Shown here: positions 2,432 to 42,529 of the stretch, piece by piece
Numbering within the stretch: the first letter of the stretch is position 1
Layout: each line of letters opens with the position of its first letter
Assembly (NCBI RefSeq): GCF_024298765.1
Contig: NZ_CP101210.1
DNA length: 64,000 bases
Strand: one strand, 5' to 3'
DNA from: Escherichia coli
Lineage (GTDB): Bacteria > Pseudomonadota > Gammaproteobacteria > Enterobacterales > Enterobacteriaceae
Made by a program: the position numbers and the translations under genes
Notes under the pieces: generated by a model
Told to the model about the DNA's origin: nothing
The model's database searches: none
Seen by the model: only the letters and a program-made list of their open reading frames with translations

Positions 2432-2449
2432 TGTTAGCGTTTATATCCT

Positions 2450-2483
2450 GTTTTAAATACAAAAGCCCCGCTGTCGGGGCTTG
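2450..2483 (-). terminator. Hairpin plus T-run between hsdR stop and hsdM start
   Basis: GCCCCG-CTGT-CGGGGC stem-loop (2465-2480) followed on the minus strand by a U-rich tract; lies in the 63-bp hsdR-hsdM gap. Confidence 0.35.
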
Positions 2484-2494
2484 TCATGTGCGTA

Positions 2495-12881: not shown

Positions 12882-12882
12882 C

Positions 12883-13206
12883 ATGAGAAATATAACAACC
12901 GATGAACTTGCTTTAATACATGGTGCAGGATTAGATAAAGATGCATCCGTTGCAATAGGTACTGCGGCTGGTGGTTTTTTAGGTAAAGCAACAAAAATCC
13001 CTGGTGCGGATATAGCAGGAAGTGCAATTGGAGGATATATTGGAGGAGTTATTGCTGATGGTTCAAATAGGACAATAACAATACCATCAAACGGTATTAA
13101 CTATAATCCGGGTATAGGACTTGGAAGTTTTAATCCAAACTACAATGGAGGTTTATTAAACTCAGGATTTAACTCATCAACATCCTCTTCTAGTAGTGGA
13201 AGTTGA
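12883..13206 (+). CDS. Class IIb (siderophore-type) microcin-like precursor, not assignable to a named microcin
   Basis: 107-aa ORF; leader MRNITTDELALIHGA|G of double-glycine type; Gly/Ala/Ile-rich core; C-terminal Ser-rich tail SSTSSSSSGS as in salmochelin-modified microcins; AAGAGG Shine-Dalgarno overlaps the upstream stop; convergent on mchF. Confidence 0.7.
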   Translation: MRNITTDELALIHGAGLDKDASVAIGTAAGGFLGKATKIPGADIAGSAIGGYIGGVIADGSNRTITIPSNGINYNPGIGLGSFNPNYNGGLLNSGFNSSTSSSSSGS

Positions 13207-13215
13207 TTAATTTCT

Positions 13216-13253
13216 AAAGCAGCATAGCTTATTATGCAGCAATGCTGCTTTTA
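13216..13253 (+). terminator. Rho-independent terminator after the microcin-like gene
   Basis: AAGCAGCAT...ATGCTGCTT inverted repeat followed by TTTT, 10 bp after the stop. Confidence 0.45.
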
Positions 13254-13266
13254 GTGATATATTATC

Positions 13267-15369: not shown

Positions 15370-16636
15370 TGAGCGGTCCTGTTGCACTGTGTTTCATGTC
15401 ATAGAAAGGAGAAAGCATCCACTGGTAAATACGCCTTTTTTCCAGAAATAGTGTACTTTCGGCTTTCATTCCATTTTCCAGAGGGAGGTATTTTTCGTCA
15501 TATCTGATAATCTGCTTTTCAGGCATCGCAATGACTTTATACCAGGGAACAGAGTCGCCCGGCGTATTCTGTGGTGCTCCCTTATAGGTCAACATTTCCT
15601 GTGTTGACGCAGGAGTCCTGGATATAGTTTTAACCGTAGCAGAGAACTGCCCAAATTTTTCTGCCGGAAAGGCTTCATAACGAATATTCACTTTGTCACC
15701 AGCCGAAATATAAGGAACAGCATCATTCGGGACCCAGAGAATAAGATAATAGTTTTCAATGTTCTCAGGAATAACCTGCAGAAGGCTGTCTCCGGTATTG
15801 ACCATTTGCCCGACAGTGACACTCAAGGAGTCAACTTTCCCGTCAGTCAACGCCCGGATAATGATTTCGCCCTCCACATCAGTGTTAACCAGTTCTTTCT
15901 GTAACTCATACCGTTGCAGTTCCATCTGGTAGATACGGTTATCAAAATCTGCAGCCTGAGTCTGAATCTGACTCTCCAGAGTGGTTATCTGCAGGGCATT
16001 CTGTTCGTTCTGTCCGCTCAGGCTGAGAAGATTGTTTTGTTGCTGATAATATAATGCCACCTGGTTAGTTAACTGATCTTTATTAATCAGCCCTTTTGCC
16101 TGATAGTTTCTGTAATTCTCCATATTGTTTTTCATTATTTTTATCCCTTCCTCTGCACGCTGTATAATATCTGATGAGCGACGAAACGCATCTGTGTATT
16201 GCAGGCGTTGTTTTTCCAGGGTATCTAGCGTTATTTTTTTACTTTCTTCCAGACGGGAAATAATGTTGTCCACACGAACCAACTGGTTTTCTATATCCCG
16301 ACGATGATTATCAGTGACAATACCACTACGTGTACTTTTACTGATGTCAATCAGATAAACAGGATCCCCTTTTTTTATCAACTGTCCTTCATGAACAAAC
16401 TGCCTGACAACAAATCCCTGTACACCTGAATATATATTGACAGCTCTTGGCCAGGTTGTGACCTCACCACTGACATTAACACGGCGGCTATAGGTACCAA
16501 CAATAATGAACATCAGAAATGCCGTAATAAACACTATGCTTCCCAGCATGATTAACCATAGTGGTATTCCGGGAAGTAATATTGCCCGTCCCTGCCACTT
16601 CATTTTTCTGTTTTCTAAAGCATCCTGACGAAACAA
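15362..16636 (-). CDS. mchE: Microcin secretion membrane-fusion protein (CvaA/MchE, HlyD family)
   Basis: 424-aa [30 protein letters not shown]..., single N-terminal TM plus coiled-coil; overlaps mchF start by 8 bp; first codon is TTG. Confidence 0.9.
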
Positions 16637-16788
16637 AATAGCTCCTCTTACTCACACTTTTCCTGTAATACCTTCACTGGTTAACCGAAATGCTATAATC
16701 AAAGCCAGAAAATATAGAGTCCTGTTAAAATAGTATCAGCGATGCATTTACCCCGTAATTTACAATTATCTCTGTATCTTCAGAGGTA

Positions 16789-17241
16789 CTACGTTTTATG
16801 CAGCCGCTCAGGGATGTATGTCACAATTTTCTTTCGCCTGCTTAACCATCGTACTTCTCCTTCTCCCCATGGCTGAAGCTGTATGAGATAGTCAATAACT
16901 TTTCGACCAAAGCCTGGTTTACAACAGAAATCCAGAATCCAAATCCTTCCATCTTCATTCCATTCAGACGGATGCAACCTGAATTCTGGATCCCTGAGCA
17001 GGCGCGCTTCTGTATCAGCCTCAAGATATGCCCAGGTAATATACGCCAGTGGAAAACCTCGTGAATCAAACAGGAATTTAATCTGATTATGCTGTATCGC
17101 ATATTCAGTCCAGTATTGAATGGTTAACACCGGATACAGACTGTAATTACGATTGTAGAGCATACAACTGACCGCAAAACCGATCTGTTCATAAACAGTC
17201 CATTCATCTTTTCCTCTGATGTTTTCCCTTATATAAGACAT
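16789..17241 (-). CDS. mchD: Microcin maturation protein MchD (MceI-like, HlyC-type acyltransferase family)
   Basis: 150-aa ORF with ATG start directly downstream of mchC; HlyC/toxin-activating acyltransferase-like sequence. Confidence 0.75.
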   Translation of the reverse strand: MSYIRENIRGKDEWTVYEQIGFAVSCMLYNRNYSLYPVLTIQYWTEYAIQHNQIKFLFDSRGFPLAYITWAYLEADTEARLLRDPEFRLHPSEWNEDGRIWILDFCCKPGFGRKVIDYLIQLQPWGEGEVRWLSRRKKIVTYIPERLHKT

Positions 17242-17266
17242 GATTACTATTTCCCTTATATATTTT

Positions 17267-18817
17267 TTACACTGTGTTTCTTATCGGTTCAAGATATCCA
17301 AATGCATCTCTGGAAAACTTAAGCATAAAATTTTTCATATCAGAAATTGCTTCTTGTAAAAAAAGGGGATCATCGCCATGATTATCCAGCAGGATGGCAA
17401 TTTTTTCGCACATATTCTCTTTCCTCAGCTCTTCCCTGGGTTGCAGCCTTTTCATGGTATGATGTTCAATTTCTTTCAGGAGTAATGAGGCATTTATCTG
17501 ACGTCTGGTACTGCCTTGCGTCAGCCAGTGGATGGCCTGGGAAAAACACTGTTGTGCAACGGTGAAATAAACATCATTCTTGATGCTACTATTCAGTGCC
17601 TGCTTTTGATTATGCCTATGATGGATTAGCGTCACAACCAACTTTTGCAATGGTGAACCATCCTGATTGACAATATCTTGGGCATGTGATTTCTCGCAGT
17701 ATTGATTGAGTAATGCAACAAAACTGTTAACCAGTTCTTTCAATATATCAGGTATCTCTTTTTGTGTTATAAATTCTCCAGGAATACCCAACAGTTCTAG
17801 ATAACAGTAATAACATGCTTCATGAAAAGTTTTCTGAAATATCTCCTCAACCTTCAAACGGGCTGCAAGAGTGAAGTCAGGGTCAAACATATATTTTCCG
17901 ATATACAAGCAGAGATCAGACAGCCCTTGCATAAGTACCATCGGTTCTTTTGCCAGTTCAGCTAATCTTAGTTTATACCCAAAATCAGCTGGGGAATCTC
18001 CCGGAAACAGACAACTGAGTCCGCTAAAATCCATTAATCTGCCATCCATTGCAATATTAGAAGGAGAAGTTGTCAATCTCAGGAAACGTGTTCGACAAAA
18101 TGCCATTTGCCAGGCCTCACGACGTGCCAGTTCACATAACCCCTCAATGCAATAAATCCGGGGATCAGTTCGTGCTTCAGCATCAATTTCTTCCGGTGGT
18201 ACAGGTAGATATCCTGGCAGCTTGTGGATCACAGATCTAACCCGACAGGCATCGTGAATTAACAGACTGGAATACTCCGGTTTTACTTGGAAGTAAGGTG
18301 CCCGTTCAAAATGCGCCGGACGAACAACAGGCTCACGTACCAACAGGGCTCTTCGTGATTTCCTACCGGAGCGCTCAAATGCCTTTTCAGTATAGAGATC
18401 TGTAAGTAAAACCGCCCGAACCCGCACAGCACTATAAGGTAATATTTGAGCCAGTACTTCTCCCCACAAAGCCTCATATATTGCATGAACAGCGCCGAGT
18501 GCACCATTAGAATGACGTTCGTCAGTACCTTCGCCAACCAACGGATTACTTCCTATTCCTTTAACCTGGTAGTTACCATCAAACCCACAACGTGCACCAC
18601 CTCCATTACGCTGAATACCACTGCCACCATAGCGCTCTGCATGGAACACTTTGGCAGAAGCTGTACTGCCAGGATCGATAATATAACTGCAGGCATTTTG
18701 CAGCTCGTCTGGATTTCTGACATCCTCTGCACACCAGATTAATGAGGCCTTGATCTGCCTGGCAGTGAAAGGCACCAGGTTTTCATTCAGTTCAGAAAGT
18801 GAACACTGATGACTCAT
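17267..18817 (-). CDS. mchC: Microcin maturation protein MchC (MceJ-like)
   Basis: 516-aa ORF with ATG start, immediately downstream of mchB in the mchIBCDEF order. Confidence 0.8.
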   Translation of the reverse strand: MSHQCSLSELNENLVPFTARQIKASLIWCAEDVRNPDELQNACSYIIDPGSTASAKVFHAERYGGSGIQRNGGGARCGFDGNYQVKGIGSNPLVGEGTDERHSNGALGAVHAIYEALWGEVLAQILPYSAVRVRAVLLTDLYTEKAFERSGRKSRRALLVREPVVRPAHFERAPYFQVKPEYSSLLIHDACRVRSVIHKLPGYLPVPPEEIDAEARTDPRIYCIEGLCELARREAWQMAFCRTRFLRLTTSPSNIAMDGRLMDFSGLSCLFPGDSPADFGYKLRLAELAKEPMVLMQGLSDLCLYIGKYMFDPDFTLAARLKVEEIFQKTFHEACYYCYLELLGIPGEFITQKEIPDILKELVNSFVALLNQYCEKSHAQDIVNQDGSPLQKLVVTLIHHRHNQKQALNSSIKNDVYFTVAQQCFSQAIHWLTQGSTRRQINASLLLKEIEHHTMKRLQPREELRKENMCEKIAILLDNHGDDPLFLQEAISDMKNFMLKFSRDAFGYLEPIRNTV

Positions 18818-19088
18818 CTGGCAGTATTCTCCGTTTCAATTTTCATAAAAGAGTGTTCATAAAAGAGCAAGTAAGTGTCCTGACAGCTTCTTCCTTATTA
18901 CAGTAAAACTCTATTAATTACACATAAATTAAAAAATTATTTATCAACGACTGTAAATCATATCTTCATCAGTAAAGTGTTGAACATAAAAACACACTTA
19001 TAAATGGATCTTCTATCTGTTTTAAACAAAAAGGATATATTTTACAGGTACTACCGAAAAAGTGCCTGTAAAATAAATAAAAATATAA

Positions 19089-19316
19089 TTAGCTACCGCC
19101 ACCAGCAGAAGAACTGGCACTACCACTTCCCACGGTCGAGCCAATTGCTGTTGTCAAACCGGCAGATACGGCTCCAACTACAACCCCAAGTGGACCACCA
19201 GGTATTCCGGCGAGAGCTCCAACAATAGCTGCAGCACCTGCAGCATTAGCTGAAGTCGCTGGCGCACCTCCCGCCCCGGAAATATATCTTAACTGTGATT
19301 CTGTTATTTCTGGCAT
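19089..19316 (-). CDS. mchB: Microcin H47 precursor
   Basis: 75-aa ORF MPEITESQLRYISGAGGAPATSANAAGAAAIVGALAGIPGG...GSGSASSSAGGGS: double-glycine leader, Ala/Gly-rich core and Ser-rich tail matching MccH47 as I recall it (recalled residue 2 is R, here P). Confidence 0.9.
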   Translation of the reverse strand: MPEITESQLRYISGAGGAPATSANAAGAAAIVGALAGIPGGPLGVVVGAVSAGLTTAIGSTVGSGSASSSAGGGS

Positions 19317-19343
19317 ATAAACTGCATATAAACTCCATCATAT

Positions 19344-19553
19344 TTAACTTCCGTTTTTCCAGTCTGACCAGACCAGAATCCTTCGAATCCCATGAATCAG
19401 CTCAATAAAACCAAGAAATATTATAAAGCTTAGAAAAACGTCAACATAAGAATTCCCTTCGCCAACAATCCGAAGGGATGAAAGTGAAACCAATAAGATA
19501 GTAATAGGTAAACTGAATATAGCCGTCAATTGGGACAGTTTTTTATAACTCAT
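19344..19553 (-). CDS. mchI: Microcin H47 immunity protein
   Basis: 69-aa hydrophobic two-TM peptide immediately upstream of mchB; ATG start. Confidence 0.85.
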   Translation of the reverse strand: MSYKKLSQLTAIFSLPITILLVSLSSLRIVGEGNSYVDVFLSFIIFLGFIELIHGIRRILVWSDWKNGS

Positions 19554-19964
19554 TAATCCCTACCTGTTGCTTTATTTTCATTATGAAAAGTTACCAAATC
19601 TTAGCACCTCAGTCAGGAGAGTCAGGTCATCGATAAAGAATATTCCAGTAGAGTGGCGCTCATGATCAAAGATAACAGCAAAGTTGATGACAGTGCTGAC
19701 CGACTGTCATTTACAGAAACCCTGTTTGTAGCAAATTCCATCTTACCTGACCTCACCCAGACAAAGACAAAAGAGAATGATTGTTATTTACTTTTCAAAA
19801 AAAGTGTCATATTGTCCATATAAAGTCAAGAGGTATTTTACGTTATGTCACTGATGCAATTGTTAGTCAGGATCTCATGGTTGTCGCTCATGTATAACCT
19901 GAGACTTGAACGCACACTAATAGCGCTGACGGTCATACATCGGGAAATGTGAGGAGGCATAAGA

Positions 19965-20210
19965 ATGAATTGTGATAATAATCACAGAAATGAAGAATTC
20001 ATTGTTACCTTTGATAAAGGCAACAAGCAAGACAATTCAAGACGAAAACACGATAATTTTCCTATAGAGGTAGAATCCTCCGTAGAGCAGGAGACACACT
20101 GTATCACAAATAATAAGTCAGCTTCCGGTATAGTAACACATGACTATGATGCCGATTATATTTGTGGTTGTGGTGAAATTATGTGTCCTGGTTGCGGTCA
20201 TGACCTATAA
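19965..20210 (+). CDS. mchS4: Small Cys-rich protein, mchS4-like
   Basis: 81-aa ORF with strong GAGGAGG Shine-Dalgarno 8 nt upstream; C-terminal CGCGEIMCPGCGH cluster; position matches mchS4 in the H47 locus order as I recall it. Confidence 0.5.
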   Translation: MNCDNNHRNEEFIVTFDKGNKQDNSRRKHDNFPIEVESSVEQETHCITNNKSASGIVTHDYDADYICGCGEIMCPGCGHDL

Positions 20211-20365
20211 CAAACATTTTTGCAAACTGATACCTGATCAGGTACAAGCCTGTTGATTATTATGCTGAATATTTCATGTTATAAAACCATCGATATAAAC
20301 ATTAACAAGAAAAAACATATATTGTTTATCTGAACATTTATCGATGGAAAACCAAAGGGGAAAGT

Positions 20366-20800
20366 ATGTATCTTACGAAAAAGATTATAATAAGTATGAT
20401 GTTTATATTACCATCTGCTGCATTTTCATCAGATCCACCTCCCCTTCAACAATCGTTAGAAAAAACAACCTATTTTTCTATAGGTATGAATGGGTTTATA
20501 GGCTATCAGAGCGAAGGGGAAAAATTATACACACACATTCTTACATTAGATAATCCCGAAGAGATATTTAAAAATATAATAGAAAATAGAAAGTCAACTA
20601 AGGAGTCTAAAATTTATGCTGCTTGTGGGCTATATTATTTAAACGTAGAAAATATAGAGTCATTGTTTAATGAAAATGATAAACAAGAATATATGTCTGT
20701 CTTAAGAGGGGATATTTTAACAAAAATAAAACTGAATGATATTCTGAATTCTGTGATAATAAATGGTTGCAACACCAAATTAATATCTGAACATAAATGA
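20366..20800 (+). CDS. mchS3: Signal-peptide protein upstream of the I47-like microcin gene (candidate mchS3)
   Basis: 144-aa ORF with N-terminal signal peptide MYLTKKIIISMMFILPSAAFS; AAAGGGG Shine-Dalgarno; sits where an immunity gene would be expected. Confidence 0.5.
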   Translation: MYLTKKIIISMMFILPSAAFSSDPPPLQQSLEKTTYFSIGMNGFIGYQSEGEKLYTHILTLDNPEEIFKNIIENRKSTKESKIYAACGLYYLNVENIESLFNENDKQEYMSVLRGDILTKIKLNDILNSVIINGCNTKLISEHK

Positions 20801-20816
20801 GCAGGAGGTTTTTAAA

Positions 20817-21053
20817 ATGAGAGAAATATCAGATCACATGCTTGATTTCGTGAAAGGAGGGATGAATCTTAATGGATTACCTAGTTCTACTAATGTAATA
20901 GATCTACGAGGAAAAGATATGGGAACATATATTGATGCTAATGGAACATGCTGGGCTCCGGGTACTCCATCCATCATCATGTATCCGGGGGGAAGTGGAC
21001 CTTCTTATAGTATGAGTAGTTCCACATCCAGCGTAAACAGCGGCACATCATAA
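20817..21053 (+). CDS. mchS2: Microcin I47-like precursor
   Basis: 78-aa ORF MREISDHMLDFVKGG|MNLNGLPSSTNVIDLRGKDMGTYIDANGTCWAPGTPSIIMYPGGSGPSYSMSSSTSSVNSGTS: double-glycine leader, Ser-rich tail; closely resembles MccI47 as recalled; GCAGGAGG Shine-Dalgarno. Confidence 0.75.
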   Translation: MREISDHMLDFVKGGMNLNGLPSSTNVIDLRGKDMGTYIDANGTCWAPGTPSIIMYPGGSGPSYSMSSSTSSVNSGTS

Positions 21054-21085
21054 ATACCCTCCGGCATGGCCGGAGGGTATTTATG
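21054..21085 (+). terminator. Rho-independent terminator after mchS2
   Basis: Perfect 11-bp stem TACCCTCCGGC/GCCGGAGGGTA with 3-nt loop, then T-rich tract, starting 1 nt after the stop. Confidence 0.5.
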
Positions 21086-21337
21086 ATGTGCCTGTAAGAC
21101 TCTACTTCTGTCGTCTCTTTACAAAGGCATATGATCTGTCATTTTGTACCAGACATCTTAACGAGAGCCTTTTCATATATTACTTACATACGTGAAATCT
21201 ACAGTATAAAGCAAAAATTTTATTAAACCTGTTTTATATTTATCATCAATACAACAGATTTAATTCCGGAAAGTCACTCATCATCCCTTGAATGAACGTC
21301 ATTTGATGTATTATTCTTACACTTGGATTAATTTAAG

Positions 21338-22612
21338 ATGATACCTATGAAAAACTATCTTTTCCAGACTCCCGAAGATATTTGTGTACAGTTAAAAAAA
21401 ATGACACATCCTGTCACAATAAGAACAACAGATATTGCTAATTTCTGGCACTATCTTGAGTCAGCAACACTTCCAGTGATCACAAAAAGCACCACTACAG
21501 AAAATCGGGAGGTTACATTTCTGTGGCGCTCAGAGAAAGCACTGCAAGGCGTATATCTTCGCCTGAATCGTGTTACAGATAAAAAAGACGTCAAAAAAGG
21601 ACTAATGACTCATATCCCTTCGACAGATATCTGGATGCTGACACTGGTGTTACCAGCTTCATATCGGGGCTCATACTCATTTATAGAAATTCCCACAGAT
21701 ATGACACAAAAAGACATATTTCAACTAGGAAGTCGCTTCTCTCCATTACCCGGTAAATCTGATCCATTTAACAAAACAGCAGAAATAAATATACGAGGAT
21801 TCGGAGAATCAGTCCTTTCTCTTGATATGGCTCCTGAACAAAAGGAATGGGATGATACTTCCCATAAATGTACAGGTATTCTTTCAATATTACATTCCTT
21901 TGTTGCAGGATATCAACGCCGGATTCGTTTATATTTCCCCCTGAATCCAACATCAGTACCTCTTGGATTACTTGTGTTACCTGATGCTGAAACATGGTTT
22001 GACCGGATAGATATTACCCGGGCATTAGATATGGCCATCACCACTGGTCGTATCACGCCAATGGCAATTATGGGGATAGACAATATTAATGAATCTGATC
22101 GTATGAATATACTGGGAGGCAATAAAGAACTCATCTTTGATATAGCGGAAAATCTGATACCCCAGTTATACAGAGACTATCCGGATATCGTATGGGCTGG
22201 TCGCTCTAATACTGTACTGGCCGGGCAGAGCCTCGGTGGAGTGACAGCACTGATGGCAGCTATATATGCGTCGACAACATTTGGTACAATCATTAGTCAC
22301 TCACCTTCAATGTGGTGGAACCCTGACCAGGGCAGCCCGATCTTGTTTACTGAGAATAATACCTCCTGGGTAAGTGAGCAGATACTTTCAGCGCCTCCGA
22401 AAGATGTAAATATCCGACTTGGAGTCGGTTCTTTAGAAGGTACAACCGTCTCACATGTTCAGCGATTGCATCATTCGTTAATCGCAGCTGGTTTGGAAAG
22501 TAACCTCACTGTCTATACCGGTGGTCACGATTATGCTTGGTGGCGCGGAGCAATTATTGATGAATTAGCAAATTATAATTGCAGGAAGGTATCAAATAAT
22601 AACTCTGTGTAA
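21338..22612 (+). CDS. mchS1: Enterobactin/salmochelin esterase homologue (IroD/Fes-like)
   Basis: 424-aa ORF with serine-hydrolase motif GQSLGG; position between mchS2 and mchA in the H47 locus. Confidence 0.8.
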   Translation: MIPMKNYLFQTPEDICVQLKKMTHPVTIRTTDIANFWHYLESATLPVITKSTTTENREVTFLWRSEKALQGVYLRLNRVTDKKDVKKGLMTHIPSTDIWMLTLVLPASYRGSYSFIEIPTDMTQKDIFQLGSRFSPLPGKSDPFNKTAEINIRGFGESVLSLDMAPEQKEWDDTSHKCTGILSILHSFVAGYQRRIRLYFPLNPTSVPLGLLVLPDAETWFDRIDITRALDMAITTGRITPMAIMGIDNINESDRMNILGGNKELIFDIAENLIPQLYRDYPDIVWAGRSNTVLAGQSLGGVTALMAAIYASTTFGTIISHSPSMWWNPDQGSPILFTENNTSWVSEQILSAPPKDVNIRLGVGSLEGTTVSHVQRLHHSLIAAGLESNLTVYTGGHDYAWWRGAIIDELANYNCRKVSNNNSV

Positions 22613-22753
22613 AATATCGTTTTATCGTCCGATAACTCTTTCTGCAATATTATTATGGGAGACTGTCTCATTTATTTAGTGATGTCCTTCATTTATGTGA
22701 TGAAGGACATTATATTACTCATAACATTTCTCGTTGAAAATTTCAGCAATACG

Positions 22754-23878
22754 CTACAATTGTTTCCCGTTGTTTTTTAATTTTCTCATCAAAACCTCTG
22801 CGATCTCTGCAGGAGTGGGTTGTTCAGCCATTTCAGCGGCTACCTGATCTGAACAGAAGCGTAGTGAATCATCATAAAGCAGGCGATTTACCAAATCACT
22901 GGTCAGTCCATGCTTGTCCGGAATAATCCCACACCCACGCTTCGCAACAATTTCTGCATTAACAGAGCGATCTGCACCTTCTCCAAACACAATCTGTGGT
23001 ATTCCACTATACAGCGCTGTCAGGGTATTACCTGCGCCACCGTGATGAATAAATCCATCAGCTCCATTAAGGAATACACCCATAGGTATCCAGTCAACCA
23101 GACGTACATTTGATGGTAGTTTTCGTAATCCAGTACGAGCATTTATTGCAAGTTGCAAAATGATATCAGCATCAACTTCATTTGCTGAATCCATAACCCA
23201 TGAAATCAGCTCCAGACCATCAACCATTGGTTTTACAGTGCCAAGGCTGATGAGTAAACGTTTCCGATCAGAATCCCTGTCCCACCATGTTTCCTTTACA
23301 GCACCTCCGTTATAAGGAATATATCGCATTGAGATAATCGGTTCTTCAGCATTTTTAAGAATGCTCATACTTGGGGGAGCAACATCAATCCATGCTAAAT
23401 CACATAGTGGACCGCTGACTCCATGCCGCCTGTAAGCATTGCTTAAAGAACGGTTTAACATCTGAATATGGGCAGATGTATGCGCGAATCCAACAGCCAG
23501 CATCACTGAAGAAATTCTATATTTAGCAGCAACCAATGGGCCTGCCGGACCAAGCGGGGGATAGACTATTAAATCTGGCCTCCATTTTCCTGCAAAATCG
23601 ATGAGGTTATCTGCCATTTCATCGCTAAAAAAAGAGAAATGACCAATAATATTACTTTTTTTCCTCAACTCTTCCTGATGACGATATCCAGCCTCTGAAT
23701 CTAAACTTGGAGCTGCATCAAAAACAACCAGTCCAGCTTCTGCTGCTTTATTCGCGAATTTGCCAGCGCTACTAATTACTACATCATGTCCGATTACACG
23801 AAAGGCCTGAGCCAGAGAAATCAATGGGTATAACAAACCGTACAGCGGAGGGCCAATAAAAAGAATACGTTTTCGCAT
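22754..23878 (-). CDS. mchA: Enterobactin C-glycosyltransferase homologue (IroB-like)
   Basis: 374-aa GT-B glycosyltransferase-like ORF (MRKRILFIGPPLYGLLYP..., C-terminal HHGGAGNT nucleotide-sugar motif). Confidence 0.85.
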   Translation of the reverse strand: MRKRILFIGPPLYGLLYPLISLAQAFRVIGHDVVISSAGKFANKAAEAGLVVFDAAPSLDSEAGYRHQEELRKKSNIIGHFSFFSDEMADNLIDFAGKWRPDLIVYPPLGPAGPLVAAKYRISSVMLAVGFAHTSAHIQMLNRSLSNAYRRHGVSGPLCDLAWIDVAPPSMSILKNAEEPIISMRYIPYNGGAVKETWWDRDSDRKRLLISLGTVKPMVDGLELISWVMDSANEVDADIILQLAINARTGLRKLPSNVRLVDWIPMGVFLNGADGFIHHGGAGNTLTALYSGIPQIVFGEGADRSVNAEIVAKRGCGIIPDKHGLTSDLVNRLLYDDSLRFCSDQVAAEMAEQPTPAEIAEVLMRKLKNNGKQL

Positions 23879-24554
23879 TAAAAAAGTCCGTCTTCTGCTT
23901 ACCTGTTTATTTTTCTATCGCTAAGAAAACATAATTAATATTATTTTTATGTGAGCTTATGCACAAAAATAACAAAGTATCTTATCTTCTGGTAGAGATA
24001 CAGGATACAGTTTGTAGGAGCTTTCTTTTTTTGAACAATGATTTGCAGGACAGTTATGCCAACCTAGCAGAATCAGTATCACAACAATAAATGACAGATC
24101 ATACCTGAAATTTGAATTAACAGGCATCATGAATGTCAATAGTCTAAGCGGTTACTACTTACATCGCTTGCATAAATACTAAACACTGACTAGAAAAGTA
24201 TTGGATAACCCCGTCACTAAAAGTAACACTTCGGTTATTTGCTCGGAATGTATCAACGCCAAGATTGTTAGCCGTTACGCCTTATATCACTGGCGCTGAC
24301 AAATGTTTCTTTTCTAATTTACTGAACCGGCGCAGACTTACAGAAAAACACTCCGGCACCGGTGTAATGCCAGTTATAAACAATGTGAATGGAATGACGA
24401 ATCAGTCAGGAAAGAGCTACAATCTGCTGGCTGACCGGAGAGGGTCAGCAGGAAGATGAACGGTAATGTCGCCAGCACCAGGGGCAGGGCCGGGTTCCAC
24501 AATACCAGCGCCGGCATTTTGCACATTGCCAGCGTACCGGCATCACAACACGTT

Positions 24555-33463: not shown

Positions 33464-34449
33464 TGAGTTCCACCAGAACCGTTTTTCTTTTTGCTGCTGT
33501 TTTTGCGTTTATGCTGTTCGTACCTTTCTTTTGACGTACAAAGGAATCTTCCATAAACATTGCGGATATATGAGTTGATATACTCCAGCATTCTCTCTTT
33601 TCGTGATTTCCCTTTTTCCTTCGAATCTTCACTTTGAACATTAATGTCCATCAGTTCTTTTATAAACTTATCCAGATTTTCCATGTCATAAAGCAGCATG
33701 AAAAACATCACATTTCCCAGTGATTCCAGTAACTGAGATTCAACCCAGTCCCCATATTTTCTGAAACTTAGCCCTGTTAAAAACTGTTCAAACATTACCC
33801 CTGATACAAAAAGAGATTTTAATCCCAGTCGCTTATATTCCTGGTAAAAAAGTTCAAACGTCGGGGATTCTGAACGGCAAATAAACGAAGACAGCGCCCA
33901 TGGATCAAAATCTGTAACACGCCTCCCCTCCCACACTTCCTGCCGTGTCAGCGGCGGTTCAGCAAACCAGGCGTCCAGCTCAGCCGAATCGCTGTCCCTG
34001 CTCAAAACCTTATACAAACTGCCCGTGAACGGTTGAGGCGGATTTTTGGTTGCTTCATCTTCTGATTGTCTGGATTGTCTGGATTGTCTGGATTGTCTGG
34101 ATTGTCTGAATCCGTCCACTTTTCTCCGGATATTACGCGGGATCAGCATAAAAGGCGGGACATTAAGTGATAAACGTTTACCCGTCATGCGATACCATTG
34201 CCCCACCTCAACCTTAATCCGTGTATCTGACTTTAGCTCAAGTGCCATTATGTTAAGCAGGTACAGATAACGCACCGTATAACAGTCAAAATGTTTCTCC
34301 GGATCAAACGGCTCTGACCGTTCTCTGCACACGAGTCCGCTGCGCTTCAGTATTCGCTGGGTATCTTTCCAGGCCTTACACTGAAGAATGGTGGTAACTC
34401 TGGCCTTATTAGCAATCTCACGCAGCGCATCACTTTGTTGTGCCGTCAT
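33460..34449 (-). CDS. Uncharacterised protein with internal (RQS)5 repeat
   Basis: 329-aa ORF, ATG start preceded by GGGAGGTGAG Shine-Dalgarno; contains an in-frame 9-bp tandem repeat (34062-34106); stop overlaps the stop of the convergent 32594 gene (TTAA). Confidence 0.55.
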   Translation of the reverse strand: MTAQQSDALREIANKARVTTILQCKAWKDTQRILKRSGLVCRERSEPFDPEKHFDCYTVRYLYLLNIMALELKSDTRIKVEVGQWYRMTGKRLSLNVPPFMLIPRNIRRKVDGFRQSRQSRQSRQSRQSEDEATKNPPQPFTGSLYKVLSRDSDSAELDAWFAEPPLTRQEVWEGRRVTDFDPWALSSFICRSESPTFELFYQEYKRLGLKSLFVSGVMFEQFLTGLSFRKYGDWVESQLLESLGNVMFFMLLYDMENLDKFIKELMDINVQSEDSKEKGKSRKERMLEYINSYIRNVYGRFLCTSKERYEQHKRKNSSKKKNGSGGTH

Positions 34450-34554
34450 CTCACCTCCCGCACTCTGTCACTCCAGATTTTTTCACGTCCATATTACCTG
34501 AATGATAAGCCGGATTAGTGTGATCCGGTTCAGCGAAATCAACAGGATAACGGT

Positions 34555-35439
34555 ATGTCATTCAGCCATTCTTCCCTCTCCGCACAAGTGAAATCACATC
34601 TGACGTTTCTTCCTGAAGAAATTCGCCAGAAAATCCTTGAACATCTCCACAGTGTTATTCATTACGAGCCCGTGATTGGCATTATGGGTAAATCCGGAAC
34701 AGGCAAAAGCAGTCTGTGTAATGCCATTTTTCAGTCCCGTATCTGCGCCACACATCCTCTGAACGGCTGCACCCGCCAGGCTCATCGTCTTACCCTGCAG
34801 TTCGGTGAACGCAGAATGACGCTGGTCGATCTGCCCGGCATTGGTGAAACACCGCAGCATGATCAGGAATACCGGACACTTTATCGTCAGCTGCTACCGG
34901 AACTGGATCTGATTATCTGGATCCTGCGGGCTGATGAACGTGCGTATGCTGCTGATATTGCCATGCATCAGTTTTTACTGAATGAAGGCGCAGATCCCTC
35001 GCGTTTTCTGTTTGTTCTCAGCCATGCCGATCGCGTGTTTCCTGCTGAAGAATGGAATGCCACAGAAAAATGCCCGTCCCGTCAGCAGTCGCTCTCACTG
35101 GCGACGGTGACAGCCCGGGTGGCAACCCTGTTCCCTTCATCATTTCCGGTACTCTCCGTTGCTGCACCTGTCGGCTGGAACCTTCCGGCGTTTGTGTCGC
35201 TGATGATCCACGCACTGCCACCACAGGCAACCAGCGCGGTGTATTCACATATCCGGGGAGAAAACCGCTCTGAACAGGCCCGGAAACACGCACAACAGAC
35301 TTTTGGTGAAACCATCGGGAAAAGTTTTGACGACGCCGTTGCCCGTTTCAGTTTTCCGGCCTGGATGTTACAGCTTCTGCGCAAAACCCGGGACCGCATT
35401 ATCCACCTGCTGGTCACACTGTGGGATCACCTGTTCTGA
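34555..35439 (+). CDS. YeeP/YkfA/YfjP-family GTPase
   Basis: 294-aa ORF with P-loop GKSGTGKSSLCNAIF and DLPGIGE (G3) motifs; position typical of CP4-44/CP4-57-like elements. Confidence 0.8.
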   Translation: MSFSHSSLSAQVKSHLTFLPEEIRQKILEHLHSVIHYEPVIGIMGKSGTGKSSLCNAIFQSRICATHPLNGCTRQAHRLTLQFGERRMTLVDLPGIGETPQHDQEYRTLYRQLLPELDLIIWILRADERAYAADIAMHQFLLNEGADPSRFLFVLSHADRVFPAEEWNATEKCPSRQQSLSLATVTARVATLFPSSFPVLSVAAPVGWNLPAFVSLMIHALPPQATSAVYSHIRGENRSEQARKHAQQTFGETIGKSFDDAVARFSFPAWMLQLLRKTRDRIIHLLVTLWDHLF

Positions 35440-35557
35440 ACGCCCCGGAGTCCCCCGTGGCAACCGTATACCTTTACACGACAACGGATTACGGTAACCA
35501 CTGCCGTATACCGTCTGTCATTATCAATAACACGCTCTTTAATTTCAGAGGTCAGTC

Positions 35558-36235
35558 ATGAATACCAGAATTCTTTTTCCCCTGCTGTTCACTGTGGCAT
35601 CATTCTCCGCCTCCGCCGGCAACTGGGCTGTCAAAAACGGCTGGTGTCAGACCATGACGGAAGATGGTCAGGCGCTGGTAATGCTGAAAAATGGCACGAT
35701 TGGTATTACCGGCCTGATGCAGGGATGCCCGAATGGTGTACAGACGCTCCTGGGCAGCCGTATCAGTATTAACGGTAACCTGATCCCCACATCACAAATG
35801 TGTAATCAGCAGACGGGATTCAGGGCTGTTGAGGTGGAAATCGGACAGGCGCCGGAAATGGTCAAAAAAGCCGTTCACTCCATAGCAGAGCGTGATGTGT
35901 CCGTTTTACAGGCATTTGGTGTACGAATGGAATTCACCCGCGGTGATATGCTGAAGGTCTGTCCGAAATTTGTCACATCACTTGCCGGTTTTTCCCCGAA
36001 ACAGACGACCACTATTAATAAAGATTCCGTCCTGCAGGCTGCCCGGCAGGCATACGCCCGGGAATATGACGAGGAAACAACAGAAACCGCTGATTTTGGC
36101 TCTTACGAAGTAAAAGGCAATAAGGTTGAGTTTGAAGTATTCAATCCTGAAGACCGTGCGTACGACAAAGTGACCGTCACGGTTGGTGCTGACGGTAATG
36201 CCACCGGCGCCAGCGTTGAATTTATCGGAAAATAG
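35558..36235 (+). CDS. Secreted/periplasmic hypothetical protein
   Basis: 225-aa ORF with cleavable signal peptide [20 protein letters not shown]; ATG start. Confidence 0.6.
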
Positions 36236-36240
36236 CCGGT

Positions 36241-36474
36241 ATGTCGGACTGCCACCCTGTTTTATTGCCCGAAGGCCCTTTCTCACGCGAACAGGCGGTT
36301 GCCGTCACAACAGCTTACCGCAATGTGCTTATTGAGGATGACCAGGGAACGCATTTCCGGCTGGTTATCCGCAATGCCGAAGGGCAGCTACGCTGGCGGT
36401 GCTGGAATTTTGAACCTGATGCCGGAAAACAGCTAAATTCGTATCTCGCCAGTGAGGGAATTCTCAGGCAATAA
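36241..36474 (+). CDS. DUF905-like small protein (YkfF/YpjJ-like)
   Basis: 77-aa ORF; [55 protein letters not shown] resembles the YkfF family as recalled. Confidence 0.5.
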
Positions 36475-36563
36475 ACGTCTTCATTTCATCCATCAGGCCG
36501 CGTCTTCTCCGGGAGACGCGGCCTTTTCGTTTATACCGCTAATTCATTCATAAGGAGCAAAGT

Positions 36564-37382
36564 ATGCAATTAGCCAGTCGTTTTGGTCATGTAAATCAGA
36601 TCCGTCGGGAGCGCCCACTGACACGCGAAGAACTGATGTACCACGTCCCGAGTATTTTTGGAGAAGACCGGCACACCTCCCGCAGTGAACGGTATGCGTA
36701 CATTCCCACCATCACCGTCCTGGAAAATCTGCAGCGGGAAGGCTTTCAGCCGTTCTTCGCCTGCCAGACCCGTGTGCGCGACCAGAGCCGCCGGGAATAT
36801 ACCAAACATATGCTGCGTCTGCGGCGGGCCGGACAGATAACTGGTCAGCATGTGCCTGAAATTATTCTGCTCAACTCCCATGACGGTTCATCCAGCTACC
36901 AGATGTTACCCGGATATTTTCGTGCCATTTGTACCAATGGACTGGTCTGCGGTCAGTCTCTGGGAGAATTGCGTGTTCCACACCGGGGAAATGTGGTGGA
37001 GAAAGTTATTGAAGGGGCTTACGAGGTGGTGGGCGTGTTTGACCGGATAGAGGAGAAGCGTGATGCCATGCAGTCGCTGGTCCTGCCGCCACCGGCACGC
37101 CAGGCGCTGGCACAGGCGGCACTGACTTACCGTTATGGTGACGAACATCACCCCGTCACCACCGCCGACATTCTGACGCCACGACGCCGGGAGGATTACG
37201 GTAAGGACCTGTGGAGTACTTATCAGACCATCCAGGAGAATATGCTGAAAGGCGGAATTTCCGGTCGCAGTGCCAGAGGAAAACGTATCCACACCCGTGC
37301 CATTCACAGCATCGACACCGACATTAAGCTCAATCGCGCATTGTGGGTGATGGCAGAAACGCTACTGGAGAGCCTGCGCTGA
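36564..37382 (+). CDS. DUF932-like protein (YfjQ/YafZ-like)
   Basis: 272-aa ORF in the conserved position upstream of the anti-restriction/radC genes; family assignment from memory. Confidence 0.55.
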   Translation: MQLASRFGHVNQIRRERPLTREELMYHVPSIFGEDRHTSRSERYAYIPTITVLENLQREGFQPFFACQTRVRDQSRREYTKHMLRLRRAGQITGQHVPEIILLNSHDGSSSYQMLPGYFRAICTNGLVCGQSLGELRVPHRGNVVEKVIEGAYEVVGVFDRIEEKRDAMQSLVLPPPARQALAQAALTYRYGDEHHPVTTADILTPRRREDYGKDLWSTYQTIQENMLKGGISGRSARGKRIHTRAIHSIDTDIKLNRALWVMAETLLESLR

Positions 37383-37647
37383 TGCAATCTGTCCCTGAAG
37401 GCGTGATTCAGGCACCAGAATCACCCGACGCCCCGGAGAACTCAGTCTGTGCAGACTGAGTACAGGCAATGGCATCTTCTGGCCATCCGTCTGTGACCGG
37501 AACGGTTACGCGTACGGCTGTCCGGAATTTCAGCCGAATATCATTCATCCCTGATATTGCCGGGTCTCACGGTCAGTGATGAACGTGATGTTGTCAGCCC
37601 CCGGCCTTTATTTCCTCTCATTTATACACATTGTAAGGATTTCACTC

Positions 37648-38127
37648 ATGAAAATCGTTTCTCAGAACACAACTGCTCTTTCTTCAGCCACAGCACCAGG
37701 GAATAACCAGCCCCAACTGGTTGCTACTCCCGTCCCTGATGAACAACGTATCAGCTTCTGGCCGCAGCATTTTGGCCTCATTCCACAGTGGGTGACCCTG
37801 GAGCCCCGTGTCTTCGGCTGGATGGACCGTCTGTGCGAAGACTACTGCGGGGGCATCTGGAATCTGTACACCCTGAACAACGGCGGGGCATTTATGGCCC
37901 CCGAACCGGATGATGATGATGACGAAACATGGGTACTGTTCAATGCCATGAACGGTAACCGCGCTGAAATGAGCCCGGAAGCCGCCGGCATTGCCGCCTG
38001 TCTGATGGCGTACAGCCATCACGCCTGTCGTACAGAGAATTATGCCATGACGGTTCATTATTACCGGCTGCGGGATTATGCCCTGCAGCATCCGGAATGC
38101 AGCGCCATTATGCGCATCATCGACTGA
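37648..38127 (+). CDS. KlcA/ArdB-type anti-restriction protein (YfjX/YafX-like)
   Basis: ATG at 37648 preceded by TAAGGAT Shine-Dalgarno (track ORF starts upstream at 37576); family-like FWPQHFGLIPQW segment. Confidence 0.7.
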   Translation: MKIVSQNTTALSSATAPGNNQPQLVATPVPDEQRISFWPQHFGLIPQWVTLEPRVFGWMDRLCEDYCGGIWNLYTLNNGGAFMAPEPDDDDDETWVLFNAMNGNRAEMSPEAAGIAACLMAYSHHACRTENYAMTVHYYRLRDYALQHPECSAIMRIID

Positions 38128-38619
38128 ATGGAGGCAGGGACAATGCAGCAGCTTTCCTTTCTGCCCGGAGAGATGACACCCGGCGAGCGCAGCCTCATTC
38201 AGCGGGCCCTGAAAGCCCTGGACCGCCATCTTCATGAACCCGGCGTGGCCTTCACCTCCACGCATGCGGCACGGGAATGGCTGATTCTGAACATGGCGGG
38301 ACTGGAGCGTGAAGAATTCCGGGTGCTGTATCTGAATAACCAGAATCAGCTGATTACCGGTGAAACCCTCTTCACTGGCACCATCAACCGCACAGAAGTC
38401 CATCCCCGGGAGGTGATTAAACGCGCCCTGTACCACAATGCCGCTGCCGTGGTGCTGGCGCACAATCACCCGTCCGGTGAAGTCATCCCCAGCAAGGCAG
38501 ACCGCCTTATCACGGAACGTCTGGTACAGGCACTGGGCCTAGTGGATATCCGGGTGCCGGACCATCTGATAGTCGGTGGCAGCCAGGTTTTCTCCTTTGC
38601 CGAACATGGTCTGCTTTAA
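38128..38619 (+). CDS. RadC-like JAB-domain protein (YeeS/YfjY/YkfG family)
   Basis: 163-aa ORF with JAMM-type HNHPSG motif; alternative start at 38143 after a GGAGG Shine-Dalgarno. Confidence 0.85.
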   Translation: MEAGTMQQLSFLPGEMTPGERSLIQRALKALDRHLHEPGVAFTSTHAAREWLILNMAGLEREEFRVLYLNNQNQLITGETLFTGTINRTEVHPREVIKRALYHNAAAVVLAHNHPSGEVIPSKADRLITERLVQALGLVDIRVPDHLIVGGSQVFSFAEHGLL

Positions 38620-38681
38620 CCCGTCACAACCACATCACACCTGTTTTCACTTTTATCTTCTGTCTTCAGAGGTATCCCATT

Positions 38682-38903
38682 ATGAAAATTATCACCCGTG
38701 GTGAAGCCATGAGTATTCACCAACAACATCCGACATCCCGTCTTTTTCCGTTCTGTACCGGTAAATACCGCTGGCACGGCAGTGCTGAGGCGTATACCGG
38801 TCGTGAAGTGCAGGATATTCCCGGTGTGCTGGCTGTATTTGCAGAACGCCGTAAGGACAGTTTTGGCCCGTATGTCCGGCTGATGAGCGTCACCCTGAAC
38901 TGA
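38682..38903 (+). CDS. YeeT-like protein (DUF987)
   Basis: 73-aa ORF in the conserved position between the radC-like gene and the TA module. Confidence 0.6.
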   Translation: MKIITRGEAMSIHQQHPTSRLFPFCTGKYRWHGSAEAYTGREVQDIPGVLAVFAERRKDSFGPYVRLMSVTLN

Positions 38904-38921
38904 ATCAGAAAGGGGATTCTG

Positions 38922-39550
38922 ATGAGCAGCATTATCACCATCACAGTGTATACGCTGGATGAACTTTCCTGCCCGGTACGGGGAAAAGCCCGCGACGGGT
39001 ACCGTCAGCATCATGCTGACAGCAACTGGTATGAAAACGTGTATGAGGACTTCAGGGCGGTCTGTGACATTTTCGGAATTGACCTCCGCCAGCGCGTTTT
39101 CCGGCTCAGCCAGGTTTATGGAAGAGCCGTGCATCTGGTTCAGCGGATGCTGCAGCCAGGGGGACGGAGCCTGTTTTGAAGGACGCTGGCACTGGCAGCC
39201 GGCGACAGCCCGGATAATCCGGAAGTATGCCCCACAGGAGCATGAACTCCATCGTATCGCGGATGCCCTGCAGGCGGTGCAGAAACGTAACTTCTGGCAA
39301 CTGCAGGCTGAAATCCACCACCGGGGACGTTACTGCCATCCGTTATCACTGTTACCCGGAACAGTCCGACTGGTCAGGCTATGACAGCCGATGCGGAAGC
39401 CGCTGTCAGCGAAGCCCTGCGCGACCTGGCCTTCTGGCTGTACCGTCAACTGGAAAACGAGTACGACCAGATGACCTCAGACGCCGCTGTGGATGAGGCC
39501 ATTCTCATCAATGCATACATCTTCACCGAAACCGGTCAGCGCACCGGCTG
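38922..39550 (+). pseudogene. Frameshifted gene remnant between yeeT-like gene and cbeA
   Basis: Coding potential passes through three overlapping frames (38922-39179, 38959-39384, 39383-39550) with no single long ORF. Confidence 0.3.
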
Positions 39551-39600
39551 ACCTGTCATCGTTAAACCATTCTTAACCACTTTTCAGAGAGGATTTTATC

Positions 39601-39969
39601 GTGTCAGACACACTCTCCGGGATAACTCATCCCGACGACAATCACGACCGCCCCTGGTGGGGGCTTCCCTGCACAGTGAGGCCCTGTTTTGGCGCCCGTC
39701 TGGTGCAGGAGGGTAACCGCCTGCATTACCTTGCCGACCGCGCCGACATCAGAGGCCGGTTCAGCGATGCGGATGCATACCATCTGGACCAGGCCTTTCC
39801 GCTGCTGATGAAACAACTGGAACTCATGCTCACCAGCGGTGAACTGAATCCCCGCCATCAGCATACCGTCACGCTGTATGCAAAAGGGCTGACCTGCGAA
39901 GCCGACACCCTCGGCAGTTGTGGTTACGTTTATCTGGCTGTTTATCCGACGCCCGAAACGAAAAAGTAA
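39601..39969 (+). CDS. cbeA: CbeA/YeeU-family antitoxin (type IV TA)
   Basis: 122-aa ORF MSDTLSGITHPDDNHDRPWWGLPCTV...; very close to K-12 YeeU as recalled; GTG start. Paralogues (yafW, yfjZ) exist, so the symbol is by best resemblance. Confidence 0.8.
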   Translation: MSDTLSGITHPDDNHDRPWWGLPCTVRPCFGARLVQEGNRLHYLADRADIRGRFSDADAYHLDQAFPLLMKQLELMLTSGELNPRHQHTVTLYAKGLTCEADTLGSCGYVYLAVYPTPETKK

Positions 39970-40059
39970 ACCACCGGAATAACCTTCTGCTCCGGCCAGG
40001 TGTTTTCACCACGCCACTCTCCCCATAATTTAATCTCTCATATCAGGAAAATCTTCAGT

Positions 40060-40470
40060 ATGAAATTATTACCCGACACACATGTACGGGAGGCATCGTG
40101 CTGCCCGTCTCCCGTCACCATCTGGCAGACACTGCTCATCCGTCTGCTGGACCAGCACTATGGCCTCACACTGAATGACACACCGTTCGCTGATGAACGT
40201 GTGATTGAGCAGCATATTGAGGCCGGCATTTCACTGTGCGATGCGGTGAACTTTCTCGTTGAAAAATACGCACTGGTACGTACCGACCAGCCGGGATTCA
40301 GCGCAGGAGCCCCGTCGCAGTTAATCAACAGCATCGATATTCTCCGGGCCCGCCGGGCAACAGGCCTGATGACACGTAATAACTACAGAATGGTAAATAA
40401 CATTACCCTGGGTAGCATCCGGGGGCGAAACGATGAAACTTTCCCTGACGCTGGAAGCCGACAGCATTAA
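40060..40470 (+). CDS. cbtA: CbtA/YeeV-family toxin (type IV TA), C-terminus divergent
   Basis: ATG at 40060 gives [11 protein letters not shown]...[62 protein letters not shown] matching YeeV-family; last ~20 residues differ from the K-12 sequence I recall. Confidence 0.8.
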
Positions 40471-40855
40471 CGTGCAGGCACTGAACATGGGGCGCATTGT
40501 CGTTGACATTGATGGTGTAAATCTCGCTGAACTGATTAACAAGGTCGCTGAATACGGTTATTCACTCCGCGTGGTGGATGAACGTGACGCTACCGAAACA
40601 CCGGCGACTTCTGCCAGCTCTCATCAGTTGCCGGAAGACAATACAGTGATACAGAGCGTGATGCCATTAACCACTGAAACAGCGCTGGATATCCTCATTG
40701 CGTGGCTGCAGGACAATATCGACTGCGGGTCCGGAATTATTTTCGACAACGATGAGGATAAAACGGATTCGGCAGCACTGCTGCCCTGTATTGAACAGGC
40801 CAGGGAGGATATCCGTACCCTGCACCAACTGCAACTTCTGCACCAGAACCGGTGA
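40433..40855 (+). CDS. Hypothetical protein downstream of cbtA (YeeW position)
   Basis: 140-aa acidic ORF, ATG start, overlaps cbtA 3' end by 38 bp. Confidence 0.4.
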
Positions 40856-40939
40856 ATCTCACTCACCAGACTTCATTCTCCTGACGCCAGCCTGAACAGA
40901 GCTGGCGTTTTCGTTTATAAACAGAAAGGAAACCCCATA

Positions 40940-41725
40940 ATGTCATATATCACAATCCCCCACCCGAACGCGGTCAACGGACATACAGCCGTTATCTGTT
41001 CCACAAGTATCAGACACATCCTGGCTGTACGAAAGAGTACACTGCTGCAAATCGACACGCTTATCCGGCAACTGACAGAAATCTCAGCACTGACGGAAAG
41101 TATTGGCGGTAAAGCCGCCCCGGACTGGGCGATGAAACAGAATTTTCGCTGTGGTTGCTGGCTGATGGAGAAACCAGAAACAGCAATGAAAGCCATTACC
41201 CGGAATCTTGACCGCGAAATCTGGCGTAACCTGATGCAGCGTTCCGGGATGCTTTCCTTAATGGATGCACAGGCACGTGATACATGGTACAGGTCACTGG
41301 AATATGATAATTTTCCGGAAATCAGTGAAGCGAACATTCTGAGCACATTTGAACAACTGCACCAGAATAAGGATGAAGTGTTTGAGCGGGGGGTGATCAA
41401 CCTCTTCAAAGGGCTGAGCTGGGATTACAAAACCAACTCACCCTGTAAATTTGGCAGTAAAATTATCGTCAACAATCTGGTGAGGTGGGACCAGTGGGGA
41501 TTTCATCTTATCAGTGGAATGCAGGCAGATCGCCTGGCTGACCTGGAAAGAATGTTGCATCTGCTCAGCGGTAAACCGATCCCCGACAACCGGGGAATAT
41601 CACCATTAATCTGGATGACCACATACAGTCCGTTCAGGGTAAAGGACGCTATGAAGATGAGATGTTCATCATTAAATACTTTAAGAAGGGAGCTGCACAC
41701 ATCACTTTCAAAAGGCTGGAGCTGA
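40940..41725 (+). CDS. Hypothetical island-end protein (DUF4942-like, tentative)
   Basis: 261-aa ORF with ATG start; last gene before the att remnant. Confidence 0.45.
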   Translation: MSYITIPHPNAVNGHTAVICSTSIRHILAVRKSTLLQIDTLIRQLTEISALTESIGGKAAPDWAMKQNFRCGCWLMEKPETAMKAITRNLDREIWRNLMQRSGMLSLMDAQARDTWYRSLEYDNFPEISEANILSTFEQLHQNKDEVFERGVINLFKGLSWDYKTNSPCKFGSKIIVNNLVRWDQWGFHLISGMQADRLADLERMLHLLSGKPIPDNRGISPLIWMTTYSPFRVKDAMKMRCSSLNTLRRELHTSLSKGWS

Positions 41726-41891: not shown

Positions 41892-41913
41892 TTCGATTCC
41901 GAGTCCGGCACCA
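41892..41913 (+). repeat. 3'-terminal fragment of tRNA-Phe (att-site remnant); not an intact tRNA gene
   Basis: TTCGATTCCGAGTCCGGCACCA matches the T-arm/acceptor 3' end of E. coli tRNA-Phe with one G fewer than I recall; upstream sequence is not tRNA-like. Confidence 0.6.
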
Positions 41914-41924
41914 AATTCATATAA

Positions 41925-41952
41925 ACGGACCTCCACGGAGGTCCGTTTTTCG
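41925..41952 (+). terminator. Rho-independent terminator (native pheU downstream terminator)
   Basis: 10-bp perfect stem ACGGACCTCC/GGAGGTCCGT with 2-nt loop, then TTTTT. Confidence 0.55.
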
Positions 41953-42529
41953 TTTCAGGACGCCACGATTTAAGCGTCCTGCCGCCAAATCAATTCTACC
42001 GAACTCAACCAGATTCTCCCCACATCACCAGCAATTTACGGGCATATTCCAATTCGGGAAAATTTGTTTCTGAGCTATAGCGCTGACTGACGTGAAATGT
42101 CGTGCGGCCCCGTGATGCTGTTGAACGTCAAATGACGTCATCAGGAGCGTAACGCACCCATAAAGCACAACATCGGGCAGAACGCCAACTGATGAGATTT
42201 TCTGAATAAGAACAAAGAGAAATGTATCAGTCCGTTTGCTCATGCAAAGACTAACAATCCATTAAAATAGTAAGCGCTCCGGACAATTTTTCATGGATTA
42301 TTTTCTGAACATTTTTCTTTGGCAAAGATGATGAATTTTGATGGTAAGGAAAATTACTTCTGGTTCTCAGTAAAATCCTTTCGTAATACTATGTAATCAA
42401 GAAGTTTATGGCGGGTAAAAATAACGTCCTACATTCACCAATAATATGTAAATAAACCCATCTATAGATGGAAAAAATAGGTTATGGCAATTATCATTGC
42501 ATCATTCCCTTTTCGAATGAGTTTCTATT

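Follow-up and report, generated by a model that had tools for sequence, protein, structure and literature searches.

The open reading frame at 37648-38127 of the window, by which we mean the whole 64,000-nucleotide stretch of Escherichia coli DNA that was analysed, very likely encodes a functional ArdB anti-restriction protein that belongs to the backbone of a CP4-like island, and the type I hsd genes of the same island are very likely unrelated cargo. On this reading ArdB would probably be able to inhibit the island's Hsd enzyme if over-expressed, and would be unlikely to do so from its native locus. The initial annotation of this DNA had pointed to the joint presence of an anti-restriction gene and a type I restriction system in one acquired region; the observation is correct but ordinary, and the question that it raised about ArdB is largely closed, the answer being already known.

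The anti-restriction gene is the following:

37648-38127, plus strand: ardB, encoding a 159-aa anti-restriction protein of the ArdB/KlcA family (PF03230), assigned by Pfam, a PDB match and PGAP

The frame of 159 codons starts with ATG and has TAAGGA just before it, and both the start codon and the ribosome-binding site are kept in eight independent E. coli copies. Its product matches Pfam PF03230 'Antirestrict' along all 92 model positions (127.5 bits, cutoff 25; E 2.2e-37), and a phmmer search of the PDB returns 2WJ9 (E 3e-99) and the NMR structure of KlcA, 2KMG (E 2e-20), which bears out the KlcA/ArdB family named at the outset. In ACN002, a near-identical strain, PGAP places an 'antirestriction protein', WP_057109541.1, at just these coordinates; among NCBIfam and PADLOC models, none matched the ArdB or DUF932 proteins of the window. 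Residues conserved in KlcA136 are retained: R18, E35, R125, E133 and D142 correspond to R34, E52, R142, E150 and D159 of the window protein, and Y49, G51, W54 and S88 to Y66, G68, W71 and S109. Two further positions carry conservative changes, D61 to N78 and D90 to E111, both of which are also found in the active ArdB_CFT. In every respect that could be tested the window protein is a member of the ArdB/KlcA family, and its sequence predicts the globular fold of that family, which is not a DNA mimic.

Aligned by BLASTP with the 157 native residues of 2WJ9, the window protein has 145/159 identical positions (91%); over its residues 29-159 the identity is 128/131, and all other differences lie in the first 28 residues. 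We take 2WJ9 to be the ArdB of E. coli CFT073 (ArdB_CFT), an equation that rests on the common length of 157 aa and on UniRef, where the exact 2WJ9 sequence is named Q8VRA1_ECOLX; in CFT073 no ardB was found at 270-320 kb, the region examined for NP_752219. The window protein and ArdB_CFT both come from E. coli islands and share a 90%-identity cluster, which holds 7202 member sequences. They differ in the N-terminal tail, where some 11 substitutions and a 2-residue indel fall within the first 28 residues, and in the core by the substitutions D65/N, A121/T and N131/C, all three being common natural variants in other E. coli copies. YafX (CP4-6) and YfjX (CP4-57) of K-12 belong with the window protein to one chromosomal ArdB clade, yet they are of 152 aa rather than 159 and reside in different islands.

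More distant are KlcA of the IncP-1 plasmid pBP136 (2KMG) and the plasmid ArdB proteins of pKM101 and R64, which share the Pfam family and the predicted fold and have anti-restriction activity without anti-modification; among the matches listed, plasmid homologues are 29-39% identical to the window protein. Plasmid records with a homologue number at least 5000, and of the best-scoring 5000, 4941 fall below 60% identity and 3868 are on conjugative plasmids. Genes of the klcA/ardB type on plasmids lie in leading or kil regions and are expressed early after transfer. Unlike these, the clade of the window ardB is essentially chromosomal: a 745-bp query made of ardB and its upstream spacer is found in 4458/5426 complete E. 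coli genomes at 12,549 places (median 3 and at most 14 per genome), with 12,542/12,549 on chromosomes.

What such proteins do has been measured. Serfiotis-Mitsa et al. (PMC2836571) worked with the 157-aa ArdB_CFT (ORF14 of PAI II in E. coli CFT073) and with YafX and YfjX of K-12. ArdB_CFT relieved the restriction of lambda 710-fold with EcoKI (type IA), 54-fold with EcoAI (IB), 199-fold with EcoR124I (IC) and 1174-fold with StySBLI (ID), and its anti-modification effect was slight (Table 2, PMC2836571). YafX and YfjX alleviated restriction as ArdB_CFT did and were positive against types IA, IB, IC and ID; at low level, plasmid-borne yafX or yfjX relieved restriction, and with the vector alone restriction was full (PMC2836571). 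The initial annotation had framed the activity as an open functional question, to be settled by alleviation assays with unmodified lambda and the island Hsd or EcoKI, and the EcoKI assay is already in print for the 91%-identical ArdB_CFT, for YafX and for YfjX (PMC2836571). The outcome said to count against the activity, a failure to alleviate restriction by any type I system, is contradicted for the clade of the window ardB by the positive results with types IA-ID. In vitro, EcoKI was not inhibited in the 2010 study, and cleavage by BlihIA is blocked by R64 ArdB (PMC12429846). Inhibition of type I systems by R64 ArdB is reported to be independent of the recognition site, with BREX and type III R-M unaffected (PMC10149784).

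The region that carries both loci is a tRNA-associated island. Some 9-10 kb to the left of the window start, ACN002 has the tRNA-Phe gene pheU and an intact integrase of the tyrosine recombinase type, and comparison of pheU with the window sequence marks the other end:

41894-41933, plus strand: attR-like direct repeat of the pheU tRNA 3' end, 40 nt, right island boundary

The match to the pheU 3' end reads TTCGATTCCGAGTCCGG(G)CACCAAATTCATATAAACGGACC, the window copy being without one G, and cadC, at 42530, adjoins the repeat. With pheU and the integrase on the left and the repeat on the right, hsd and ardB both fall within a single island at pheU, about 52 kb long; their assignment to the same acquired region is therefore sound. 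CP4-like (P4-type integrase) islands of E. coli are recognised by insertion beside a tRNA gene and by ends formed by an integrase and a repeat of the tRNA 3' end, and this is what we find. KlcA has been noted previously in pheU, pheV and selC islands of E. coli (PMC6174562). Identity between the window and ACN002 is 99.8-99.99% over the island and 98.5% over the core flank; ACN002 carries an IS2 at about window position 23963-23968 (1336 bp including the target duplication), which is absent from the window. The idea that the window is ACN002 DNA was rejected on these grounds; it stems from another strain that is closely related. A short integrase remnant is seen at about 42112-42271, to the right of the attR repeat and between the island and cadC, and may be the trace of an older pheU insertion. 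A scan of the whole window against Rfam returned no family above its gathering score.

The island is mosaic, its GC content in 2-kb windows varying from 0.34 to 0.56, and the stretch between hsd and ardB holds an orphan cdiA-CT with an immunity gene, a microcin H47 cluster, genes of the YagK/YfjJ type and H-NS fragments. The cdiA C-terminal fragment (6337-9801, minus strand) has hemagglutinin repeats, PT-VENN and an Endonuclea_NS_2 toxin domain, and its N-terminus is flagged as missing by PGAP. It is followed by a YezG-like immunity gene (6005-6337, minus strand), and the pair directly adjoins hsdR. The microcin H47 cluster, at about 12800-23900 and of low GC (0.34-0.47), includes mchF, a C39 peptidase/ABC exporter (13267-15387), an HlyD-family protein (15362-16636), an acyltransferase, mchB, mchI, mchS3, an esterase-like hydrolase (21338-22612) and a glycosyltransferase (22754-23878).

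At the island end distal to the integrase, ardB sits in a conserved block, with the order GTPase, hypothetical, DUF905, DUF932, ArdB, RadC/JAB, DUF987, YeeT, CbeA, CbtA, DUF5983, DUF957 and DUF4942. Around ardB its members are:

34555-35439, plus strand: YeeP-like GTPase, the start of the block (Pfam/PGAP)
35558-36235, plus strand: hypothetical protein (Pfam/PGAP)
36241-36474, plus strand: DUF905 protein (Pfam/PGAP)
36564-37382, plus strand: DUF932 protein (YfjQ/YafZ-like), immediately upstream of ardB (PF06067, E 6.8e-49)
38128-38619, plus strand: RadC-like JAB protein (YeeS/YfjY-like), immediately downstream of ardB (PF04002, E 1.4e-43)
38682-41725, plus strand: DUF987, YeeT-like protein, CbeA antitoxin, CbtA toxin, DUF5983, DUF957 and DUF4942 (Pfam, with PGAP pseudogene flags in ACN002)

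All 7 of the other copies inspected share the order DUF932-ardB-JAB, and the K-12 yafX and yfjX neighbourhoods are presumably of this same DUF932/ArdB/RadC-like/CbeA-CbtA type. A strong hairpin resembling a terminator, with 13 base pairs (9 G-C) and a T run behind it, is found at 36495-36524 on the plus strand, after DUF905 and before DUF932, which points to transcription of DUF932-ardB-radC as a unit of its own, apart from the GTPase-DUF905 genes. The spacer between DUF932 and ardB measures 265 nt, and its RNA fold has a z-score of -2.0, with 8/200 shuffles folding as well. An insert of about 180 bp in this spacer (about 37430-37620) is present and nearly identical in 4/8 E. coli copies and absent in 4/8; the spacer contains a 46-codon minus-strand ORF (37408-37548), and one copy of it has an additional 76 bp.

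At the left edge of the window lie the restriction genes:

2495-5911, minus strand: hsdR, type I restriction subunit, 1138 aa, with an N-terminal DUF4145 (Pfam ResIII, HSDR_N and EcoEI_R_C; PADLOC)
797-2431, minus strand: hsdM, methyltransferase subunit, 544 aa (Pfam N6_Mtase and HsdM_N; PADLOC)
1-~788, minus strand: hsdS, specificity subunit, 5' part (frame open to the window start; PADLOC on the ACN002 copy)

Adjacent R, M and S genes make this a type I R-M locus, in the order R-M-S on the minus strand, with hsdR and hsdM intact; hsdS is cut by the window edge only and is a complete 364-aa gene in ACN002. Pfam domains and full-length PADLOC models (REase_I, 909 bits for HsdR; MTase_I, 639 bits for HsdM; Specificity_I, 372 bits for the ACN002 HsdS) uphold the reading of 1-5911 as hsdRMS. 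The enzyme is related to type IB, with EcoAI/EcoEI closest and an EcoEI_R_C domain, but cannot be filed under IB, as HsdR scores 231 bits against the curated EcoAI-family equivalog NF046051 (cutoff 550) and 334 bits against NF008521 (cutoff 729); it stays below the cutoffs of the curated EcoAI and PRK11448 models. HsdR, whose DUF4145 covers residues 25-112, is unusually long at 1138 aa, and it may represent a type I subfamily whose response to anti-restriction proteins has yet to be described.

The place where hsd/mcr/mrr genes usually lie, between yjiS and yjiA, holds only a penicillin G acylase gene and no hsd in ACN002 (4813465-4816005); as this classical locus is without hsd, the island Hsd may be the main type I system of the strain. 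An AAA ATPase with OLD/Gabija/AbiL-like N-terminal matches comes after hsdS, just left of the window start in ACN002 (L001 43770-44435), where an IS3 has cut it to 221 aa; in strain WCHEC000837 it is of 540 aa and has a 298-aa partner (L004 17167-19685). The type I locus may have a second defence system joined to it here.

Do ArdB and Hsd form a working pair? The initial annotation had implied a special link between them, which the distribution of the two loci speaks against. The 5.5-kb block occurs in 5016/5426 complete E. coli genomes and ardB in 4458, whereas the window hsd is present in 427/5426, usually once per genome; ardB is thus about ten times more widespread, and most of its copies are without an island-borne hsd. 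As the ardB block is in 82-92% of E. coli genomes, its co-occurrence with hsd amounts to no more than chance. In the window a distance of 32 kb separates the two loci, which are on opposite strands and have unrelated cargo of another base composition between them, and we find no operon link, shared strand or conserved spacing. An ETEC strain has a 97%-identical hsd in a selC island that ends in the GTPase-DUF905-DUF932-ArdB-JAB block, 19 kb off; in a third strain, no ardB block was seen within the ±20 kb inspected around hsd. That islands at two separate tRNA genes, pheU and selC, both combine hsd with the ardB block could be read as linkage, yet it is expected if every such island has the block. 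Indeed the block is in every island of this type that was traced to its distal end (pheU, selC), so that any cargo, hsd included, will co-reside with ardB.

It is consequently quite unlikely, in our judgement, that ArdB serves as a safeguard during establishment of the type I system that the island itself carries. About as unlikely is the course of events that would go with it, in which transient ArdB on entry checks the incoming Hsd, as well as resident type I enzymes, until the host chromosome and the island are methylated. If true, ArdB and hsd would together make up self-establishing defence cargo. The block of restriction with little anti-modification by ArdB proteins (PMC2836571) is the property that such a device needs, and the possible standing of the island Hsd as the main type I system of ACN002 would agree with it. 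Against it, type I systems have a restriction-alleviation control of their own during establishment, which is ClpXP-dependent for EcoKI (cited in PMC2836571), the distances of 32 kb here and 19 kb in the selC island and the opposite strands do not favour a pair, and co-residence in two islands apart, nothing specific supports it.

By the preferred reading, ardB is a working backbone gene. That it is instead the silent remnant of a decayed mobile element, with no present function in the island, we consider very unlikely. Some observations do go in this direction. Three genes of the block, YeeT-like (38922-39551), CbtA (40000-40470) and DUF4942 (40940-41725), are frameshifted pseudogenes in the ACN002 annotation, and the PGAP annotation of the ~52-kb island in that strain lists no relaxase, type IV secretion or other conjugation genes. 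A sigma-70 promoter scan of 34300-40600 gave no match upstream of ardB, its sole match being on the other strand, and the total of matches was smaller than in shuffles. Decay of the block is uneven, though, since ardB, RadC/JAB, DUF987 and CbeA are intact beside the three frameshifted genes. The first ~30 codons of ardB are highly variable among eight copies; the median dN/dS in these copies (Nei-Gojobori) is 0.19 for the whole gene and about 0.10 for the core. Strong purifying selection on the core, together with an intact gene next to three frameshifted neighbours, indicates that ardB is kept by selection. Frame, start and ribosome-binding site are intact in 8/8 copies, the exact protein sequence of the window is found on at least 1000 public contigs, and near-identical proteins are active on expression (PMC2836571), none of which fits a relic. 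A primary role against another defence, e.g. CRISPR-Cas, with the anti-type-I effect secondary, could be suggested by the grouping of ArdB, KlcA and the anti-CRISPR AcrIC11 as one family in AntiDefenseFinder (PMC11724313), and is extremely improbable given the strong in vivo activity of near-identical ArdB_CFT against four type I families (PMC2836571), the reported lack of effect of R64 ArdB on BREX or type III R-M (PMC10149784) and the absence of any pointer to CRISPR in the window.

Taken as an ArdB-type anti-restriction protein, the product of this frame would be a standard backbone component of tRNA-integrated E. coli islands with a P4-type integrase. Once expressed, it would be expected to relieve type I restriction, and hardly modification, whatever the recognition sequence, as has been demonstrated for the near-identical ArdB_CFT. 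The hsdRMS genes would be cargo that entered this mosaic pheU island independently as a module, and their neighbourhood to ardB probably a by-product of island assembly rather than a designed pair. Strongly expressed ArdB could inhibit the island's own Hsd, an extrapolation in that HsdR lies below the cutoffs of the curated models; expressed from the island itself, it is unlikely to do so. In K-12, both yafX and yfjX are chromosomal genes, and the strain remains restriction-proficient. Because of this, and because the hosts used in the assays restricted fully with the vector alone, the ArdB of this locus is probably non-inhibiting as it stands.

Islands that combine defence and anti-defence genes have been described in Pseudomonas, where the PAPI/PAGI type carries both, and the published reading is that anti-defence aids entry and that defence then stabilises the association of host and island (PMC12629846). 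The island of the window likewise combines an anti-defence gene with a defence system; it differs in organism and island family and has no annotated transfer machinery.

What, then, does the locus add? Its significance goes little beyond a correct annotation. ArdB/KlcA is reported by AntiDefenseFinder to be the commonest anti-defence gene in Escherichia, with 3132 instances (PMC11724313), an orthologue of the window protein already has a crystal structure and a positive assay, and mixed islands have been described before; for these reasons, little significance attaches to finding ardB and hsd together. The locus gives no special handle on the molecular mechanism of ArdB or on the expression timing of its chromosomal copies. 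The island Hsd, whose HsdR lies below the curated cutoffs, would at most serve as one more substrate on which the breadth of ArdB can be gauged.
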